57,088 nucleotides of DNA from Chiloscyllium plagiosum (GCF_004010195.1 NC_057727.1:28570684-28627771), one strand, 5' to 3'. Numbered from the stretch's first letter, positions 5,893-47,809 are shown. Notes: generated from the letters alone by a model not told the origin. Translations and numbers: made by a program.

Positions 5893-5989
5893 TTCCCATG
5901 TCTCCAGTTCTTTCATTCAGCCCACCTGCTGTTTATGATCTTAAATTTCTAGCTGTTCACTTCCTAAGTTACAATAGCCCTGATCTTTT

Positions 5990-8900
5990 AAGTACAATGT
6001 TGTGGCTATTACGGAGACATGGGTAGAACAGGGACAGGATTGGCTGTTGCAGGTCCCAGGGTTTAAATGTTTTAGTAGGGTCAGAGGTGGGAGTAAAAGA
6101 GGGGGAGGTGTGGCATTGCTTGTCAAAGATAGTATTACAGCTGTGGAAAGGACGATGGATGAAGACTCGCCATCTGAGGTAGTTTGGGCTGAGGTTAGGA
6201 ATAGGAAAGGTGAGCTCACCCTGTTAGGAGTTTCTTACAGACCTCCTAATAGTCCTAGAAACGTAGAAAGGATTGCGAGGATGATTCAAGAGAAGAGGGA
6301 AAGTAATAGGGTGGTTGTTATGGGGGACTTTAACTTTCCTGATATTGATTGGGAAAGCTATAGCTCAAGTTCGTTAGATGGGTCAGTGTTTGTCCAATGT
6401 GTGCAGGAGGGTTTCCTGACACAATATGTAGATAGGCCAACAAGAGGTGAGGCCATACTGGATTTGGTTCTGGGTAATGAACCAGGCCAGGTGTTAGAAT
6501 TAGAGGTAGGTGAGCACTTTGGGGACAGTGACCACAATTCGGTGACTTTTACTCTAGTGATGGAGAGGGATAAGTGTGCACTACAGGGCAAGAGTTATAG
6601 CTGGGGGCAGGGAAATTATGATGCGGGGAGGCATGACTTAGGATGTGTGGCTTGGAAAAGTAACTCCAAGGCAAGAGTGTAAATGATATGTGGAACTTGT
6701 CCAAGGGGCAACTATTGAGTGTCCTTGATAATTATGTACCTGTCAGGCAGGGAGGAAAGGGTCATGCGAGGGAGCCGTGGTTTAATAAGGAATTGGAATC
6801 CCTTGTAAAATGGAAGAGGGCGGCCTATCTCAAGATGAGACGTGAAGGTTCAATTGGGGCGATTGAGAGTTATAGGGTAGCCAGGAAGGACCTGAAGAGA
6901 GAGCTAAAAGCAGCAAGGAGGGGACATGAAAGGTCCTTAGTAGATAGGATTAGGGAAAACCCTAAGGCTTTCTATAGGTATGTTAGGAATAAAAGAATGA
7001 CTAGGGTAGGAATAGGTCCAGTCAAGGATAGTAGTGGGAAGTTGCGTGTGGAGGCGGAAGAGATTGGGGAGACACTGAATGAATACTTTTCTTCAGTATT
7101 CACTCAGGAACAGGGCATTGTTGTCGATGAGAATACTGAGGCACAAATAAGTAGAATGGATGGCTTTGAGGTATGTAGAGAAGAGGTGTTGGAAATCCTG
7201 GAAAAGGTGAAAATAGATAAGTCCCCTGGGCCTGATGGCATTTATCCTAGGATTCTCTGGGAAGCAAGGGAGGAGATTGCAGAGCCATTGGCCTTGATTT
7301 TTATGTCCTCTTTGTCTACAGGAGTAGTCCCAGAAGACTGGAGGATAGCAAATGTGGTTCCCTTGTTCAAAAAGGGGAGTAGGGATAGCCCTAGTAACTA
7401 TAGGCCGGTGAGTCTCACTTCTGTTGTGGGCAAAGTCTTAGAGAGAATTGTAAGGGATAGGATTTATGAACATCTGGATAGGAATAATGTGATCAAGGAT
7501 AGTCAGCATGGTTTTGTGAAGGGAAAGTCGTGCCTCACAAACCTTATTGAATTCTTTGAAAAGGTGACAAAGGAGGTTGATGAGGGGAAAGCGGTAGATG
7601 TGGTATAAATGGATNNNNNNNNNNNNNNNNNNNNNNNNNNNNNNNNNNNNNNNNNNNNNNNNNNNNNNNNNNNNNNNNNNNNNNNNNNNNNNNNNNNNNN
7701 NNNNNNNNNNNNNNNNNNNNNNNNNNNNNNNNNNNNNNNNNNNNNNNNNNNNNNNNNNNNNNNNNNNNNNNNNNNNNNNNNNNNNNNNNNNNNNNNNNNN
7801 NNNNNNNNNNNNNNNNNNNNNNNNNNNNNNNNNNNNNNNNNNNNNNNNNNNNNNNNNNNNNNNNNNNNNNNNNNNNNNNNNNNNNNNNNNNNNNNNNNNN
7901 NNNNNNNNNNNNNNNNNNNNNNNNNNNNNNNNNNNNNNNNNNNNNNNNNNNNNNNNNNNNNNNNNNNNNNNNNNNNNNNNNNNNNNNNNNNNNNNNNNNN
8001 NNNNNNNNNNNNNNNNNNNNNNNNNNNNNNNNNNNNNNNNNNNNNNNNNNNNNNNNNNNNNNNNNNNNNNNNNNNNNNNNNNNNNNNNNNNNNNNNNNNN
8101 NNNNNNNNNNNNNNNNNNNNNNNNNNNNNNNNNNNNNNNNNNNNNNNNNNNNNNNNNNNNNNNNNNNNNNNNNNNNNNNNNNNNNNNNNNNNNNNNNNNN
8201 NNNNNNNNNNNNNNNNNNNNNNNNNNNNNNNNNNNNNNNNNNNNNNNNNNNNNNNNNNNNNNNNNNNNNNNNNNNNNNNNNNNNNNNNNNNNNNNNNNNN
8301 NNNNNNNNNNNNNNNNNNNNNNNNNNNNNNNNNNNNNNNNNNNNNNNNNNNNNNNNNNNNNNNNNNNNNNNNNNNNNNNNNNNNNNNNNNNNNNNNNNNN
8401 NNNNNNNNNNNNNNNNNNNNNNNNNNNNNNNNNNNNNNNNNNNNNNNNNNNNNNNNNNNNNNNNNNNNNNNNNNNNNNNNNNNNNNNNNNNNNNNNNNNN
8501 NNNNNNNNNNNNNNNNNNNNNNNNNNNNNNNNNNNNNNNNNNNNNNNNNNNNGGGTTCAGAGGAGGTTTACCAGGATGTTGCTTGGTATGGTAGAAAGAT
8601 CGTATGAGGAAAGGTTGAGGCACTTGGGGTTGTTTTCATTGGAGAAAAGAAGGTTTAGGGGTGACTTGATAGAGGTGTACAAGATGATTAGGGGTTTAGA
8701 TAGGGTCGACAGTGAGAATCTTTTTCCACGTATGGAGTCAGCTATTACAGGGGGGAAAACCTTTAAATTAAGGGGGGATACGTATAGGACAGATGTTAGG
8801 GGTAGGTTCTTTACTCAGCGGGTCGTGGGTTCATGGAATGCCCTGCCAGTAGCAGTGGTGGACTCTCCCTCATTATGGGCATTTAAGTGGGCATTGGATA

Positions 8901-15044: not shown

Positions 15045-17240
15045 GACATAGCTATGGAGAAGGAGAGGACTAGGCAAAATGGAAGGATATTTAATTGGGG
15101 AAGAGGAAACTATGATGTGATTAGACATGAGTTAGGAAGCATGGATTGGGAGCAATTGTTCCATGGTCAAGGCACTATAGACATGTGGAGACTGTTTAAG
15201 GAACAGTTGTTGCAAGTGATGAATAAATATGTCCCTCTGAGACAGGCAAGAAGTGGTAAGATAAAGGAACCTTGGATGACAAGAGCGGTGGAGCTTCTCA
15301 TCAAAAGGAAAAAGGTAGCTTACATAAGGTGGAGGATGCTAGGGTCAAGCTCAGCTCGAGCGGATTACAGGCAGGCAAGGAAGGAGCTCAAAAATTGTCT
15401 GAGGAGAGCCAGGAGGGGGCACGAGAAAGGCTTGGCAGAACGGATTAGGGAGAACACAAAGGCATTTTAAACGTATGTGAGGAATAAGAGAATGGTCAAA
15501 GAAAGAGTAGGGCCGATCAGGGATAGCACAGGGAATTTGTGTGTGGAGTCTGAGGAGTTAGGGGAAGCCCTAAATGAGTTTTTTGCTTCTGCCTTTACGA
15601 AAGAAACGAACTTTGTAGTGAATGAAACCTTTGAAGAGCAGGTATGCATGCTGGAATGGATAGAGATAGAGGAAGCTGATGTGCTGAAAATTTGTCAAAC
15701 ATTAAAGATTGACAAGTCACCAGGGCCGGACCAGATTTGTCCTTGGCTGCTTTGGGAAAAGAGAAATGCAATTGCTTCGCCACTTGCGAAGATCTTTGCA
15801 TCCTCGCTCTCCACTGGAGTCGTACCTGAGGAATGGAGAGAGGCAAATGTAATTCCTCTCTTCAAGAAAGGAAATAGGGAAATCCCCAGCAATTACAGAC
15901 CAGTAAGTCTCACGTCTGTCGTCTGCAAGGTGTTAGAAAGGATTCTGAGGGATAGGATTTATGACCATCTGGAAGAGTATGGCTTGATTAAATGCAGTCA
16001 ACATGGCTTTGTGAGGGGCAGGTCATGCCTCACAAACCTTATCGAGTTCTTTGAGGATGTGACTAGAAAAGTTGATGAGGATTGAGCAGTGGATGTGGTG
16101 TATATGGACTTCAGCAAGGCATTTGATAAGGTTCCCCATGGTATGCTCATTCAGAAGGCCAGGAGGAATGGGATACAGGGGAACTTAGCTGTCTGGATAC
16201 TGAATTGGCTGGCCAACAGAAGACAGCGAGTGGTAGTAGAAGGAAAATATTCTGCCTGGAAGTCTGTGGTGAGTGGTGTTCCACAGGGCTCTGTCCTTGG
16301 GCCTCTACGGTTTGTAATTTTTATTAATGACTTGGATGAGGGGATTGAAGGAAGGGTCAGCAAGTTTGCAGATGACACAAAGGTTGGAGGTGTCGTTGAC
16401 AGTACAGAGGGCTGTTGTAGGCTGCAGCAGGACATTGACAGGATGCAGAGATTGGCTGAGAGGTGGCAGATGGAGTTCAACCTGGATAAATGTGAGGTGA
16501 TGCATTTTGGAAGGTCGAATATGAAAGATAAGTACAGGATTAAGGATAGGATTCTTGCCAGTGTGCAGGAACAGAGGGATCTTGGTGTGCAGGTACATAG
16601 ATCCCTTAAAATGGCCACCCAAGTGGACAGTGTTGTTAAGAAAGCATATGGTGTTTCGGCTTTCATTAACGGGGGATTGAGTTTAAGAGTCGTGAGATCT
16701 TGTTGCAGCTCTATAAAACTTTGGTTAGACCACACTTGGAATACTGCATCCAGTTTCTGGTTGCCCTATTATAGGAAAGATGTGGATGCTTTGGAGAGGG
16801 TTCAGAGGAGGTTTACCAGGATGCTGCCTGGAATGGAGGGCTTATCTTATGAAGAGAGGTTGACTGAGCTCGGACTTTTTTCATTGGAGAAAAAGAGGAG
16901 GAGAAGGGACCTAACTGAGGTATTCAAGATAATGAGAGGCATAGATAGAGTCAATAGCCAGAGACTATTTCCCAGGGCAGAAATGACTAACTTGAGGGGT
17001 CATAGTTTTAAGCTGGTTGGAGGAAAGTATAGAGGCGGGTTCTTTACAGAGAGTTGAGAGAGCATGGAATGCATTGCCAGCAGCAGTTGTGGAAGCAAGG
17101 TCATTGGGGACATTTAAGAGACTACTGACATGCATATGGTCACCGAAATTTGAAGGTGCATACATGAGGATCAGTGGTCGGCACAACATCATGGGCTGAA
17201 GGGCCTGTTCTGTGCTGTACTGTACTGTTCTATGTTCTAT
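15045..17240 (+). mobile_element. 5'-truncated CR1 LINE ORF2 (RT) with stops and frameshifts
   Basis: DFSKAFDKV, GVPQGSVLGP, FADDTK motifs; TTCTATGTTCTAT tail. Confidence 0.95.
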
Positions 17241-39811: not shown

Positions 39812-41720
39812 TAAGATTTTGGAGAAGATTTGTAGCTCAGGTTGTGAGTCAGTTTGTCAGTTTGCTGCTGAGCTGATGGGTTTGTTCTCAGACATTTCAT
39901 CAGCATGCTAGGTAACATCATCAGTGAGTCTCCAGTGAAGCGTTGGTGTTTTGTCCTGCTTGCTATTTATGTGACTTGGTTTGTTGTGATGGGTGATATC
40001 ATTTCCAATTCTGTTTCTAAGAGGTTGGTAAATGGGGTCCAAATCTATATGTTTGTTAATAGAGTTCTGGTTTGAATGCCAGGCCTCAAGGAATTCCCCA
40101 CATGTCATTGTTTGATCTGGACCAGGATGGATCCCAGTCGACCTGGTGTCCCTCTTCGTCTGCGTGTATGGATACCAGTGATAGTTGGTCATGCTAATTG
40201 GTGGCTAGTTTGTGCTCATGTATCTTGGTGGCTAGTTTTCTGCTGATTGTGCAATGTAATGTTTGCTGCAGTCCTTGCAGGATATTTTGTATATTACATT
40301 CATTCTGCTGGCTGTGGGTATGGGATCATTTAAATTCATCGGTAGTTGTTTTAGTGTGGCAGTAGGTTTGTGGGCTAGCATGATGCCAAAGGGCCAGAGT
40401 AGTCCAGTGATCATCTCTGAAATGTCTTTCATGTATGATAGGGTTGCTAGAGTCTCCTGGCTTGTTGTGTCTTGCTGTTTTGGTCTGTTGTGCAGGGATC
40501 GGTGGTCTGCACTTATCATACTTCCAGAGTGCTGCAGTGTGTTGTGGCTTGTCTAAATAGTGTCCTGATGCAGCTCCGTTTGTGGGTGTTGGGATATTTG
40601 CTTCTATAGTTGAGCATCTAGTCTCTGTGCGTGTGTCTTTTCTGTAAATGCTCATCAGCAGTTATTCATTGGCTTTTCGTTCTACCATGACGTTCAAGAA
40701 GTGGAGTTGGCTATTATTCTCTTCTTCTTTGGTGAACTTTAGACTGATAAGGATGTTGTTTATGTGTTTGTGGGTTTCTTCTAGTTTGTTGCATTTCATG
40801 ATGACAAAGGTGTCATCCACATAGTGGATCAAAGCTTGGGTTCGATCATGGGAAGGGGTGTATATTCTAACCTCTGTATAACTGCTTCTACTATAAGTCG
40901 TGATATTGGTAATCCCACAGGCAATCCATTGATTTCTTTGGATATCTATTGTTGAAGGTGAAGTGGGTTGTGAGGCATAGGTTCAGTAGTTTAAGGGTGC
41001 TGTCCTTGCTATGGAGTTGGTGCTGTCAGGCATTTGTATTGCTGGTTTGTCTGGCAGTGAGGCAAGTGTTTTTTTGGCAAGGGTGATGTTTATTGATTTG
41101 AAGGAGACCATAACCTCGCCGTCCTCTATCTTGGTGTCTTTGATGGTGTTAAGGAATTCTTGGGTGGAGTGGATGAAGTGAGTTGAGTCTTCTGCCAGGT
41201 GTTTTAGATTTTTTGCAGTTAGTTTTGAGTCCATTCAAAACATTAATTTTATCTGTTATAATGTGCTACTTTTACTTTTTTATTAATTTAATTTACATTC
41301 AGAGACAGACATCAAACCGGCAGGTAACTAGCCATCAGGATCTATGAGTACAAACTAGCCACCAAAAGGCATGATCATCTATCACTTGTATCCACATACA
41401 CGGACAAAGAAGGACATCACTGACTGGGACAATGCATCCATCCTGGGACAGGCCAAACAAAGATGCGCGGGAATTCCTAGAGGCCTGGCATTCAAATTGG
41501 AACTGCATTAACAAACATATATATTTGGACCCCATTTACTAACCTCTCAGAAACAGAACTGGAAATGATATCACCCAACACAACAAATCAAGACACATAA
41601 ATAGCAAATGGACACAACACCAATGCTTCACCGGAGGCTCACTGATGATGTTACCTAGCACGGTGACGAAATGCCTGAGAAGAAACCCAACCAGCTCAGT
41701 GAGCAAACTGATAATCTGAA
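39812..41720. mobile_element. Older Penelope-like element: minus-strand RT/GIY-YIG (41235-39812) with inverted 3' segment (41303-41720)
   Basis: STQEFLNTIKD.KIE..EVMVSF, YVDDTF-like segment and NVIYKISCKDCSKHYI; CTGATGA...GAAA motifs at both ends. Confidence 0.85.
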
Positions 41721-42956: not shown

Positions 42957-43236
42957 ACGTAACTTTTCCTTGAGGCTTTTCTGTACCTTGATGATGCTTT
43001 GTAATGACAAAGCTAATAAAATAAATATTTTAATTAAGAACTTCCTTCTCACTGATCAAGCTTTACACCAAATCACACTCACCAACTTGCGATGAAAACT
43101 CTGTTTAAATCTGTATGGCTATATGATGTTTTACGACATCAGCTGAGACAATCTATGATATTCTGAATCAACAGTGCACAACACTTGTGAATGTTTCCTA
43201 TCTCTCAATGTTAGTGGATTCTTTAAAATATTCAGG

Positions 43237-43626
43237 TGAGATGTTAAAGGATTATTTTTTTCTGCTGCCATGTAAAGAAATTGAATGTCCTTGGGGATGT
43301 GTTTTTCTGTCTTGCAGGCAGGATGTGACAATCTAATCACACTGTTTTAAGGAATAACCTAATCACTTTACATTGCTTTTGAGTGGCATGTGACTATGGG
43401 GGAGTGGCAGGGGGTTGTGTCTTGCATGCATGACTGACTGTGATGGAAAATCCTGTATAAAGGGAGATGGTTCCTTTGTTCAGGGAGCCTCACTTGACAC
43501 ACTCCGCAAGCATCACGAAGAGTGTTAAGTGATCCTCCAAAAGCTGAAATTAATTGTGGCTGTTTGCAGAGGTTGGTGTTTTGCAGTTGCATTAAGTGTT
43601 TAAAATCTCAAAAAGGCAATCTAACA
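43237..43626 (+). repeat. ERV 5' LTR
   Basis: TG...CA termini (TGAGATGTTAAAGG...AATCTAACA); TATAAA at about 43456; aligns to 47232-47671. Confidence 0.88.
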
Positions 43627-43628
43627 TT

Positions 43629-43646
43629 TGGCGATAAGTGTTGGAT
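43629..43646 (+). other. Primer binding site (tRNA-Ser-like, degenerate)
   Basis: TGGCGATAAGTGTTGGAT 2 nt after the LTR; resembles the complement of a tRNA-Ser(GCT) 3' end as recalled (TGGCGACGAGGATGGGAT). Confidence 0.7.
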
Positions 43647-44127
43647 TCCAACATATATGGAGCATCTAGGCGGACTGAGTAAATGATCGCCTGCGGGACA
43701 TAACGTGAGACAGATGGGCCCACTCGGTAAGATTTACCTTGATCTCTCTCACTAACCAATCACTCAGTTGACCATTCTTCTCCAGGACTCTGTAGTGACT
43801 GAATCTCTGAGATAACTTATGCATTTGTATGCCAATGAGTTCGTCCCAGGGAAGTTCAACTCCCCCTGAAGTTTGGAGGTGAGAGTCCTCAGAACTATAA
43901 ATTACTGGAAAGTGAGGTTCGAGTCCCCCTGGAATTCAGAGGTGGGACTTGAGGCCCTGGAACACTGTACATTGATAAAGGATAACTACTGTGTCTGTCT
44001 CAATCACCCTCCGTCGACCGGCTGTTAAGAGGGAAAATCCCTCACGCGAAGGTCAGGACCAGGAAGTGGGTATAGAGGACACTGAACTAGTACATAGAGA
44101 TAAGTTAGGAAGTTGAGACATTAAAAA

Positions 44128-44367
44128 ATGGGACAGACGTTGGATAAGTCAGGTGTCTGAACCCCTCTGCATTGGTTATGCCGGGAAGACCCCCAAAATG
44201 AGGAACGATCCAGGCACCTGTCAGGATGCTCAAATAAAAAAATTGGGAAATGAAATTTGGCTGATGGGAGGGACTTGGGACATAGAAAAATGTTTAAAAG
44301 CAGAGGAGGCAATTTGGAAATGTAATACGGGGACTAATTGGAAAACTTCAATATCCATATGGAGAAA
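44128..44367 (+). pseudogene. ERV gag matrix remnant
   Basis: MGQTLDK myristoylation-type start; W..GGTWD motif like gammaretroviral MA WPxxGTF; contains a stop and a frameshift. Confidence 0.7.
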
Positions 44368-45447
44368 GTTAAAAATCACACAACACCAGGTTATAGTCCA
44401 ACAGGTTTAATTGGAAGCACACTAGCTTTTGGAGCGACGCTCCTTCATCAGGTGATTGTGGAGGGCTCGATCGTAACACAGAATTTATAGCAAAAATTTG
44501 CACTGTGATGTAACTGAAATTATACATTGAAAAATTGATTGTCTGTTAAGCCTTTCATCTGTTAGAATACAGTGATATTTTCACTTCTTTCATGTGTAAA
44601 TCACAAAACCCTTTTTTTAAAAGTTGCATTCTCGGGTTAGCTGTTAACAATGGTGATAGCTAGACAATATGTTGAAGGTGTTAGCCCCCTGTGTTCTCTG
44701 ACTATGACCTGATGTTTAGATTGATTCTAATCTAAAAAGTGAGATTACAGAGTTTTACATAAATTCATGCAGTTTTTGAGCTCAGAGTTCTACCTGAATG
44801 TATGCAGCTTTTGAGCAAAGTGCAATGTAACTCTGCAAGTACAAATTCACCACACAAAATATATGTGTGCATGTGGGTCTTTGTCTGTCTGTGTGTGTGT
44901 GTGTCTGTCTGGGGTGGGGGTTGTGAGTGTGAGAAAGTGAGTGTGAGAAAGTGTGTGTGTGTGTGTGTGTAGTGAGTGCAAAGTGTCTTAAGTCTGTGAG
45001 GGGGTGCATGTGTGAGTGTGGGAGTGTGTGTGTCTTTCAGGGTGTGTGTCGGTAGCTAAGTTCGATACCCATAGGGAGGGCCTCAACCGGGACTTTGGGT
45101 TCATGTCACATTACAGGTGATCACCATTGCACTACACACACACACACAGATATTCCTACACACACATACTCTCACATACACACGGACACAGGTAGATACA
45201 GACGTGCACACGGACACCCACACACACCCTAATAGACACACACACTCCCACACTGACACATGCACCCCCTCACAGACTTAAGACACTCTGCACTCACACA
45301 CACACATGCACACACGCACACACACTTTCTCACACTCACAAACCCCACCCCAGACAGACACACACACACACAGACAGACAAAGACCCACATGCACACATA
45401 TATTTTGTGTGGTGAATTTGTACTTGCAGAGTTACATTGGACTTTGC
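44368..45447. mobile_element. PLE-derived inverted element inserted in ERV gag; (TG)n and (CA)n arms
   Basis: Same family as 28069-30507; about 44815-45050 is the reverse complement of about 45225-45447. Confidence 0.82.
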
Positions 45448-45694
45448 ACACTTTCCTCGTGTGTGATCATGAGGGAAACCCTAAGTCTTGGGAGGTGCTG
45501 AAGAGTCAGTGTGAGGATTATGATATTGTAGAGAAAAACAGGAAAAATTGAGAAAGGAAAGGCAAAATAAGGAATGAGGGTTGAAATGCCAAGCCAGACT
45601 ATCAAGTGGGAATAAAATAGAGGTACCTCCTGGCATGTCTGGTCTGCCAATAATGTTTCAAAATCATGACACCAATGACCAGCTATGGTCACAA

Positions 45695-46150
45695 TGCAGA
45701 TTGCTGACCTCCTCAGGGGCATCTATTCAGAACTCACTATATGTCTGAAATCTCCTCAAAGCTATCCTCCTCCCTCAGCAATTGGCCATAATCAAGTGTG
45801 CTGCCCATGTAATAGTTAATACAGACATCAGCAATGGCAATGCTAGAGCTGATCGAGCTGCCAAAGACATGGCAACAGCCTGCAATTCTTTGTGCCCTCT
45901 GTGAACCGCAAGTGCTAAATCGATTACCTGCCTCAAAAACAATGGGCATACCAGACATCGTCACAGTGCAGCGTTTCCGGGGGGACATCCCTGACCCAGA
46001 AAAACAAATATGGAAGGTGCATGAGTTTTCACACTCTGCACCAAAACGGATCTAGATCACTCCAGTTCGCCAAGTGTGTATACCTGATTCTTTGTCACCA
46101 ATGCTTATTGACTATGTTCATACTGATACCCACCTTGGCAAGGAGGGAAA
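45695..46150 (+). pseudogene. ERV pol remnant (RNase H C-terminus and integrase N-terminus)
   Basis: LLTSSGASIQN...LLKAILLPQQLAIIKCAAH...GNARADRAAK, then VCIPDSLSPMLIDYVHTDTHLGKEG. Confidence 0.85.
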
Positions 46151-46473
46151 GAGGGAGGAAATGTAAAGATGCTTTCAGCAGCTAACATAATCTCTAAAGT
46201 TTCTCCATTCACAGGTAAGGGATGCCTTCGGACTACCGCCCGCCCCTTCACAACCTGATCCAAGTCCCACTTGACTTACCCATCCCCCTGGAAATGTTAC
46301 TCATTGCGCACTCAGCGGCATAGTCACTTTCCTGGGAACCTTGCTCAGTGTTTCTGGTGGACAATTGACCCCAGAATGTCTTGCACTCATTCTGGCAATC
46401 CCTCCTGCTCTCCCAGCACCAGCACTGTCTGCTGGACTAGGGGGTCACAATGGATTCAATCAGCTCCCTACTC

Positions 46474-46930
46474 ATGAGCACGAAAAGTGATGAAGCTAAC
46501 AACAGTGAAGAAGAGGTCTGTAGGCTTTTTGTCAGTGGCTTTCCTATGGATATTAAACCACGTGAACTTCACTTTCTCTTTCGACCAGTTAAGGGTTATG
46601 AAGGTTCACTGATCAAGCTAACATCAAAACAACCAGTTGGCTTTGTTACATTTGACAGCAGAGCAGGAGCAGAAGCAGCAAAGAATGCATTGAATGGCAT
46701 TCAGTGTGATCCCGAAAATCCTCAGATGCTCCGGTTGGACTTTGCAAAAGTGAACACAAAGATGGCCAAAACTGATGGCTCCACCTTACCCCACAAATAT
46801 ACACCCTGCCTTGGGAGCACATTTCATTGCATGGGATCCTTACAACCTTGCAGGAACAGTACTGATCCCTGCATCTCTGGAGGCCTGGACTCCCTATCCA
46901 CTATACACAACAGAACTGACCCCTGCCATA
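46474..46930 (+). pseudogene. RBPMS2: Intronless RBPMS2 (Hermes) retrocopy; RRM open, frameshift near 46770, 3'-truncated
   Basis: [64 protein letters not shown], then in the shifted frame [15 protein letters not shown]...[16 protein letters not shown] (RBPMS2-type); spans several parental exons without introns. Confidence 0.93.
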
Positions 46931-47219
46931 TTGGATTTTGTTTTCAGGTTGGGCTTTACTAAAGGAGATTTTAGATAACTGGCTCGATTCCAGTGAACTT
47001 GGAGGGGGTGGAGTGGTCACTAAGGACTGTGGATTTAAGAACTTTACTGGTGAACACTTTTTTTTCCACTTGGGAAGACCCTGGGGATCTAGTAATTCTT
47101 GTTGTTATAGTCATTGTATGTGTGTGTCAATAACTTGCTGAAATTCTGGCTGTCAGATTCTTATGAATAAGCTGGTAGCGCCTTTTTCAGCCCCATTTAG
47201 TTAGTTATCATGGAATCAT

Positions 47220-47231
47220 AAATGGAGGGAA
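47220..47231 (+). other. Polypurine tract
   Basis: AAATGGAGGGAA immediately before the 3' LTR. Confidence 0.7.
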
Positions 47232-47671
47232 TTAGATGTTTAAAGGTTAATTTGTTCTTCTGACATGTAAGAAAATTGGATGCCCTGAGTGGTGTGTTTT
47301 GTCTTGCATGGGCAGGATGTGACAATCTAATCATACTCTATAAATGCTGTAGTTTAAGGAATAACCTAATCACATATTGTTCTAAGGAATAACCTAATCA
47401 CTTTACATTGTTTTTGGGTGGCATGCGACCAGGGGGAGTGGCTGGGAGTTGTGTTTTGCGTGCATGACTGACTGTGATGGAAAACCTTGTATAAAGGGAG
47501 GATGGTTCCCTTGTTCAGGGGGCCTTGCTTGACATGCTCCGCAAGCATTGCAAAGAGTGTTAAATGATCCTCCAAAAATTGTACTTGCTGAAACAAATCA
47601 TGGTTGTTCACAGAAGTTGGCGTATTGCAGTTGCATCAAGTGTGTAAGAATCTCAAGAAGGCAACCTAACA
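47232..47671 (+). repeat. ERV 3' LTR
   Basis: Aligns to the 5' LTR (roughly 85-90% in the core, by eye); extra copy of TAAGGAATAACCTAATCAC; ends AACCTAACA. Confidence 0.88.
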
Positions 47672-47809
47672 CAGAATCGAAATCTATATTGTTGCCAAAA
47701 AGCTAATCAGTACTTCCTTTGCCGATACCATATCTGTATTTCAAGTTTTACTGAAATCCATCCATTTCTTTTTGACTAATGCTTTCTCCAGTGATAGTCT
47801 CCAGACAGG

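Follow-up and report, generated by a model that had tools for sequence, protein, structure and literature searches.

The element at positions 43237..47671 of the 57,088-nucleotide (nt) Chiloscyllium plagiosum sequence analysed here (the window, in which coordinates are given) is a defective, old class I endogenous retrovirus (ERV) that carries a spliced, sense-oriented copy of the RBPMS2 mRNA, and the RBPMS2-carrying ERV family to which it belongs has about 400-700 copies in the genome. Judging from the junctions and the substitutions compared below, the spliced mRNA was probably captured by two microhomology-guided template switches, and probably spread as a neutral passenger that relied on proteins of helper viruses. 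An earlier note on this DNA had described an ERV that appeared to have taken up an RBPMS2 cDNA in place of env.

RBPMS2 cargo and its parent gene

The reading frame starting at 46474 matched RRM_1 in Pfam (E 1.5e-9), and its best protein matches were shark RBPMS2 (86%). The parent gene, found at G000:C40 using two peptides missing from the cargo, has eight exons over ~106 kb, and its exons 1-6 translate to Chiloscyllium plagiosum protein P0001. Exons 1-6 and 8 matched the window cargo at 83-98% in the sense orientation, and every intron was gone, in agreement with the intronless, same-strand RBPMS2 segment of the earlier note. An alternative last exon of P0001 (G000:C40:25109262-25109402) is repeat-derived, with 111,515 candidates genome-wide.

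The cargo, on the plus strand, consists of the exon 1 5′ untranslated region (UTR; 46400..46473), the coding sequence (CDS) of spliced exons 1-6 (46474..46926; approximately amino acids 1-153, with the RRM domain and a frameshift near 46770), and the exon 8 3′ UTR (46927..47078), joined via a 184-nt internal deletion and ending in the 3′ capture microhomology (47071-47078). The host segment had been placed from 46474 onwards and described as having no 3′ UTR; its real start is near 46400, in the 5′ UTR, and 46927-47078 matches the non-coding exon 8 of the parent at 85%. Termination at ELTPAI, also described earlier, is true of the window copy but not of the capture itself. The 184 nt lost across the CDS end, where the break has an overlap of 2 nt, form a deletion common to one subfamily (form A, see below), and as 9 of 115 typed copies retain the full CDS with its stop codon, the ELTPAI end is secondary. 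Overall the cargo extends from 77 nt upstream of the ATG to ~215 nt past the stop codon, and the last exon of the parent continues for more than 1.5 kb beyond the cargo end. As stated before, the segment has no poly(A) and no target-site duplication (TSD) of its own, and none was found in any aligned copy; a processed pseudogene made by a long interspersed nuclear element (LINE) would have the 3′ end of the mRNA, a poly(A) tail and a TSD on either side, and these marks are missing from the cargo.

Cargo-free relatives and the capture points

An integrase-core frame surviving in one copy with the whole CDS (form B; Pfam rve) retrieved cargo-free relatives, which track the element to the end of integrase (IN) and then run on into ~1.5 kb of env. 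They encode protease (PR), reverse transcriptase (RT) with YVDD, RNase H, IN with MLVIN_C, and a gamma-type transmembrane protein matching Ebola-like HR1-HR2, in the order gag-PR-RT-RNaseH-IN-env, and are 67-83% identical to the window parts; every one examined was broken by stops and frameshifts. The best PDB matches of one pol segment were 'Reverse transcriptase/ribonuclease H p80' chains (E 4e-38), which we take to be the enzymes of xenotropic murine leukemia virus-related virus (XMRV) and murine leukemia virus (MLV). Domain order and motifs fit a class I (gamma/epsilon-like) ERV lineage. Two relatives (L175:2837-3187 and L163:7107-7622) carry, between protease and RT, an extra segment with two HxT-like motifs, which had no Pfam match and presumably resembles 2H phosphoesterase.

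The capture site was recognised in 10 cargo-free loci. At the 3′ junction, host and env overlap by TGGGAGGA, with 8 of 8 letters present in two of these loci and 7 of 8 in another two, and the overlap is shorter in more distant loci. At the 5′ junction, the host sequence is joined to RT, where its polymerase core ends, and not to integrase or env. The overlap here is CCCCTC(C), the CCCCTC core being present in 7 of the 10 loci, with 7-8 letters in four of those. Under a random-junction null, overlaps of at least 7 and at least 8 letters occur at 5.6e-4 and 1.8e-4, respectively. This microhomology at both capture points supports the transduction by template switching that the earlier note had invoked. 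Between the two points one cargo-free relative carries ~3.2 kb.

The RT fragment, 100 nt of the polymerase core end that closes with the 5′ capture microhomology (46306..46405), now lies downstream of the integrase tail and of ~65 nt of unmatched bases (46241..46305) that are common to cargo copies and absent from the aligned cargo-free loci; its displaced position implies at least one additional jump. The phrase 'in place of env' therefore describes the net effect, and not the junctions, as ~150 nt at the far end of env have survived and the junction on the 5′ side is to the displaced RT fragment. When the genome was searched for env with Pfam, the 30 loci taken had no DNA match to the env tail of the element, and the peptide likeness was weak; a pattern search with the env tail gave four matches, each with cargo.

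Copy number, forms and LTR types

A genome search with the window segment gave 657 DNA and 689 protein candidates, of which 40 and 150, respectively, were scored. A 24-mer spanning the junction of exons 3 and 4 had 304 genome matches with at most two mismatches, versus 0 for the reversed control. Among 31 loci chosen by an unrelated leader, 29 had cargo and 13 of these passed the 24-mer, which corresponds to ~680 copies, while 39 of 50 similarity-selected loci passed it, corresponding to ~390 copies. The copies are located on most large contigs, in unrelated flanks and with their own TSDs, and are 75-88% identical; the 4-bp TSDs were exact in five and one letter off in four of 16 class-1 copies with script-recognised ends (21 tried). 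Many loci share the junctions and differ in their flanks, the pattern that had been named beforehand as the sign of amplification after capture.

Form typing was performed on 115 distinct loci, a non-random sample. Form B, with the whole CDS, was found at 9 loci and form A, with the deletion of the window copy, at 22. Form C, found at 80, has lost 255 nt of the CDS along with the RT fragment and a portion of the 5′ UTR; four loci were unclear. The C-type start was present in 65 of 70 loci from the 24-mer match list, indicating that the window form is a minority. The 3′ long terminal repeats (LTRs) of 87 copies fell into four groups, and three types of primer-binding site (PBS) were present among the copies (Ser-GCT-like, Leu-like and one further type). 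The pairs L036/L230, L211/L212 and L042/L043, each on the same chromosome and 0.9-1.6 Mb apart, have common cargo substitutions, which suggests gene conversion or local duplication; gene conversion may thus account for part of the LTR mixing.

Form C copies have a leader of ~1.2 kb (e.g. L047:4466-5556, minus strand) that is AT-rich (34% GC) and non-coding, occurs across three LTR types, and is absent from forms A and B and from the cargo-free relatives compared. It had 619 genome candidates, of which 40 were scored, and preceded cargo in 29 of the 31 loci examined. No Pfam match was obtained in four frames and no host source was seen among the scored loci; the leader is possibly a second captured sequence. 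In one form C copy (L036:3980-4504), a single open frame fuses the integrase tail to the shortened RBPMS2, and this copy and two others are annotated 'RBPMS2-like' by NCBI, a label that reflects annotation and not a test of expression. When other sharks were searched for retrocopies at the protein level, the best 120 of 866 matches included three same-species copies alone, which is no evidence of absence elsewhere. Locus L172 has an inverted partial duplication of the cargo adjoining an integrase remnant.

Selection and decay of the cargo

The ratio of nonsynonymous (N) to synonymous (S) rates, omega, was 0.96 (0.82-1.17) for low-frequency changes in forms A and B together (A, 0.97; B, 0.95) and 1.30 (1.03-1.65) in form C, where the short exon 7 segment gave 1.79. 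Changes common within the C lineage were 8 N to 1 S, the neutral expectation being 26% synonymous. When all forms were compared with the parent, the differences were 1 N to 11 S, so the method is able to detect constraint. No undisrupted copy was found among 31 of forms A and B, and five were found among 80 of form C, versus ~3 expected by chance; the private changes of L036 (7 N to 3 S) are as under neutral decay. Form A is without the conserved C-terminus and stop codon, and form C is without the closing part of the RRM, past profile position 58 of 70. The intact open reading frame (ORF) under purifying selection that marks a functional transduced gene was not found. As far as these substitutions can be read, the cargo was shown to decay neutrally, without detectable protein-level constraint (omega ~1), and the benefit of an RRM protein implied by the earlier note gained no support from the dN/dS of the copies.

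Age and presence in related organisms

Median LTR divergence was 0.15 for form A (n = 14), 0.175 for form B (n = 3) and 0.14 for form C (n = 27), in lists where a few doubtful pairs (L077, L040) probably represent other repeats. The cargo tree, built on 104 rows and 390 columns, is star-like with terminal branches near 0.09, consistent with one old burst; it is poorly resolved and cannot order the forms or LTR swaps. In two related organisms, B and C, there are contigs that run across both flank-LTR junctions as well as the junction between RT and cargo, with ~3-7% difference. A contig of organism C also bridges the form A deletion, and no single contig covers the whole element. An empty, cargo-free provirus at this locus, which would have spoken for an ordinary retrocopy landing in a resident ERV, was not seen in the contigs of either organism. 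As the insertion is present in all three organisms, it is older than their split, and the divergences would make it roughly three times older than the split from organisms B and C.

Proposed origin and alternative explanations

The element has the marks of an LTR/ERV-mediated retrocopy, namely an intron-less sense cDNA between parts of one LTR element, microhomology at both switches, loss of viral sequence, and retrotransposition as a unit. In the proposed course of events, RBPMS2 mRNA would have been co-packaged with viral RNA in the germline, and RT, copying from the 3′ end of the viral RNA, would have jumped within env onto the RBPMS2 mRNA, copied ~880 nt of it and returned into the RT gene, thereby replacing ~3.2 kb. 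Further recombination, at no fixed place in this order, may have set the RT-cargo-env piece behind the integrase remnant. Later internal deletions led to forms B (whole CDS), A (the window type) and C (dominant), which occur with four LTR types and three PBS types. The spread presumably relied on intact relatives acting in trans during one old burst, with transfer between LTR types by recombination, to which gene conversion may have contributed. In the zebrafish data of PMC6049948, Rbpms2 is an oocyte and germ-granule protein and maternal rbpms2 mRNA is abundant, which makes RBPMS2 a plausible substrate, by evidence from zebrafish and not from shark.

Several observations weigh against this origin or against neutrality. 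The 5′ overlap is a C-rich run, the 65 nt preceding the RT fragment match no assigned source, and the predicted first form, in which a long RT would stand immediately ahead of the cargo, was not found among the copies examined. The 255-nt deletion of form C is in frame, and the integrase tail is in the cargo frame in 36 of 52 anchored copies, each with a 1-in-3 chance. Mid-frequency alleles taken without the lineage filter, 12 N to 9 S, are slightly synonymous-leaning, and the numbers of shared alleles are small. The three same-chromosome pairs with common cargo changes include two that cross LTR types.

The strongest competitor, though an unlikely one, accepts the same capture and supposes that the cargo aided the spread, either as a protein, whose RRM may have been intact or truncated, or as an RNA that steered the genome to the oocyte germ plasm. 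The very high copy number and the in-frame deletion of form C would suit it, as would the fact that all three forms retain the first 71 codons and also the beginning of the 3′ UTR. So would the presence of Rbpms2 in zebrafish oocytes and germ granules and its abundant maternal mRNA (PMC6049948). An intact RRM is required for germ-granule localisation in zebrafish (PMC6049948), whereas form C is without the last part of the RRM and form A without the C-terminus and stop codon. The shared form C changes give no sign of purifying selection (8 N to 1 S), and internal deletions retain both ends whatever the function. In its RNA version, which we likewise consider unlikely, captured RBPMS2 RNA would serve as a germline address label in cis, the pieces kept in every form steering or stabilising defective viral RNA in oocytes. 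If so, a selfish cassette would have outcompeted its helpers without needing a protein and passed across four LTR types, three primer tRNAs and several hundred copies.

Very unlikely, in our assessment, is a LINE-made RBPMS2 retrocopy that landed in a resident provirus, lost its tail and TSD through deletions, and was then amplified with the provirus. LINE-made retrocopies are common, and LINE remnants with endonuclease and RT domains are present in the window at 5984-6682 and 15471-17057. This explanation would nevertheless require that two deletions arose independently, that each stopped at a host-virus overlap of 7-8 nt, and that they took out over 1.5 kb of the 3′ UTR as well as 3.2 kb of virus, and no aligned copy retains poly(A) or a TSD. 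Segmental duplication or assembly artefact, to which a few close pairs on the same chromosome might point, has a negligible probability, and as a general cause of the family it is refuted by the unrelated flanks, the own TSDs, the spread over most large contigs at 75-88% identity, and the presence of the window locus in sequencing runs of three organisms.

Proviral frame in the window

The layout read off earlier, LTR-PBS-gag-RNaseH/IN-RBPMS2-polypurine tract (PPT)-LTR, was recovered on the plus strand with the marks of a class I ERV (TG..CA LTRs, tRNA PBS, PPT and 4-bp TSD). The 5′ LTR (TG...CA, 390 nt; 43237..43626) and the 3′ LTR (440 nt; 47232..47671) are direct repeats with a Kimura two-parameter distance (K2P) of 0.152 over 386 sites (~15% diverged), flanked by the left TSD CAGG (43233..43236) and the right TSD CAGA (47672..47675). 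The PBS (43629..43646) is tRNA-Ser(GCT)-like. It matched the 3′ end of the tRNA-Ser(GCT) genes of the same genome plus CCA in 16 of 20 letters, and the complement of the family PBS is the 3′ end of genomic tRNA-Ser(GCT) genes. The PPT (47220..47231) follows the membrane-spanning and cytoplasmic part of the env tail (47071..47219).

Decayed gag is present in two parts, 43990..44368 (72-75% to cargo-free proviruses) and 45459..45682. The alignment of gag to relatives upholds the earlier gag(MA) call as to gag; for the matrix (MA) label, neither Pfam nor a PDB sequence search with the gag profile gave a match, so that it comes from position within gag alone. The two parts are split by a later insertion of high-copy host repeats (44369..45458, no strand assigned) that is absent from sister copies. 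These nested repeats include a CA/TG-rich inverted repeat (44812-45450, arms 92-94% complementary), and ~72 nt of gag are missing at the insertion site. A deletion after the second part took away the remainder of gag together with the protease and most of RT (~4.2 kb in relatives). The RNase H end and integrase N-terminal remnant (45679..46153) is followed by the integrase tail remnant (46155..46240; 72-83% to relatives), the integrase core being deleted. Overall, the gag and RNase H/IN remnants aligned to cargo-free proviruses at 67-83%. A PDB sequence search with the IN core fragment gave no match.

Comparison with known captures

Acutely transforming retroviruses such as Rous sarcoma virus (RSV) with src have the same capture chemistry and helper dependence, and their cargo is expressed and selected; unlike src, the shark cargo is without sign of selection. 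Such viruses are mentioned in the passages of Chong et al. (2014, PMC4299795) on the crocodilian captures of nectin3 by CrocERV31 and KIT-ligand by CrocERV29, which have 6 and 9 copies, respectively, with ORFs under purifying selection. As described there, the crocodilian ERV4 captures resemble the shark element in that a host mRNA resides inside an ERV, env is replaced (nectin3), and further replication followed. The shark family differs from that description in its ~400-700 copies, its neutral decay and its class I ERV, and in having junctions mapped on cargo-free relatives, an RT-side junction, three deletion forms and four LTR types.

In the account of Tan et al. (2016, PMC5131818), LTR-mediated retroposition shows a median microsimilarity of 6 bp at the switch points. 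It shares with the shark element the internal sense retrocopy between discontinuous parts of an LTR element, microsimilarity at both switches, the lack of poly(A) and TSD, and non-autonomous further rounds. The cases in the passages cited are young and at one or a few sites, whereas the shark case is an old one that is fixed in related organisms and has reached a high copy number. The capture of FAM8A1 by HERV-K, as cited in PMC5131818, is likewise an ERV-captured mRNA with junction microsimilarity that is now a pseudogene, in a different virus class.

ERV capture of mRNA is thus already known, and the scale found here is rarely matched. No published account of a shark RBPMS2-ERV capture was found in the literature searched by title and abstract; Repbase, Dfam and supplements were outside this scope, and an earlier description is possible. 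As the parent gene and the cargo-free virus lie in the same genome as both junctions and the several hundred descendants, the family provides an unusually complete capture record for a cartilaginous fish. It indicates that hundreds-fold amplification of a captured host mRNA can proceed without selection at the protein level, a null for selected captures such as crocodilian nectin3 and KIT-ligand. The ~500 neutral copies would be usable for calibrating shark substitution rates, and the family explains spurious 'RBPMS2-like' gene annotations. More speculatively, hundreds of copies of the mRNA of a germline regulator could affect the parent through small RNAs.

Elsewhere in the window, positions 39877-41689 form an imperfect inverted repeat of 1.8 kb, probably a non-autonomous transposon, whose arms are 79-91% complementary.

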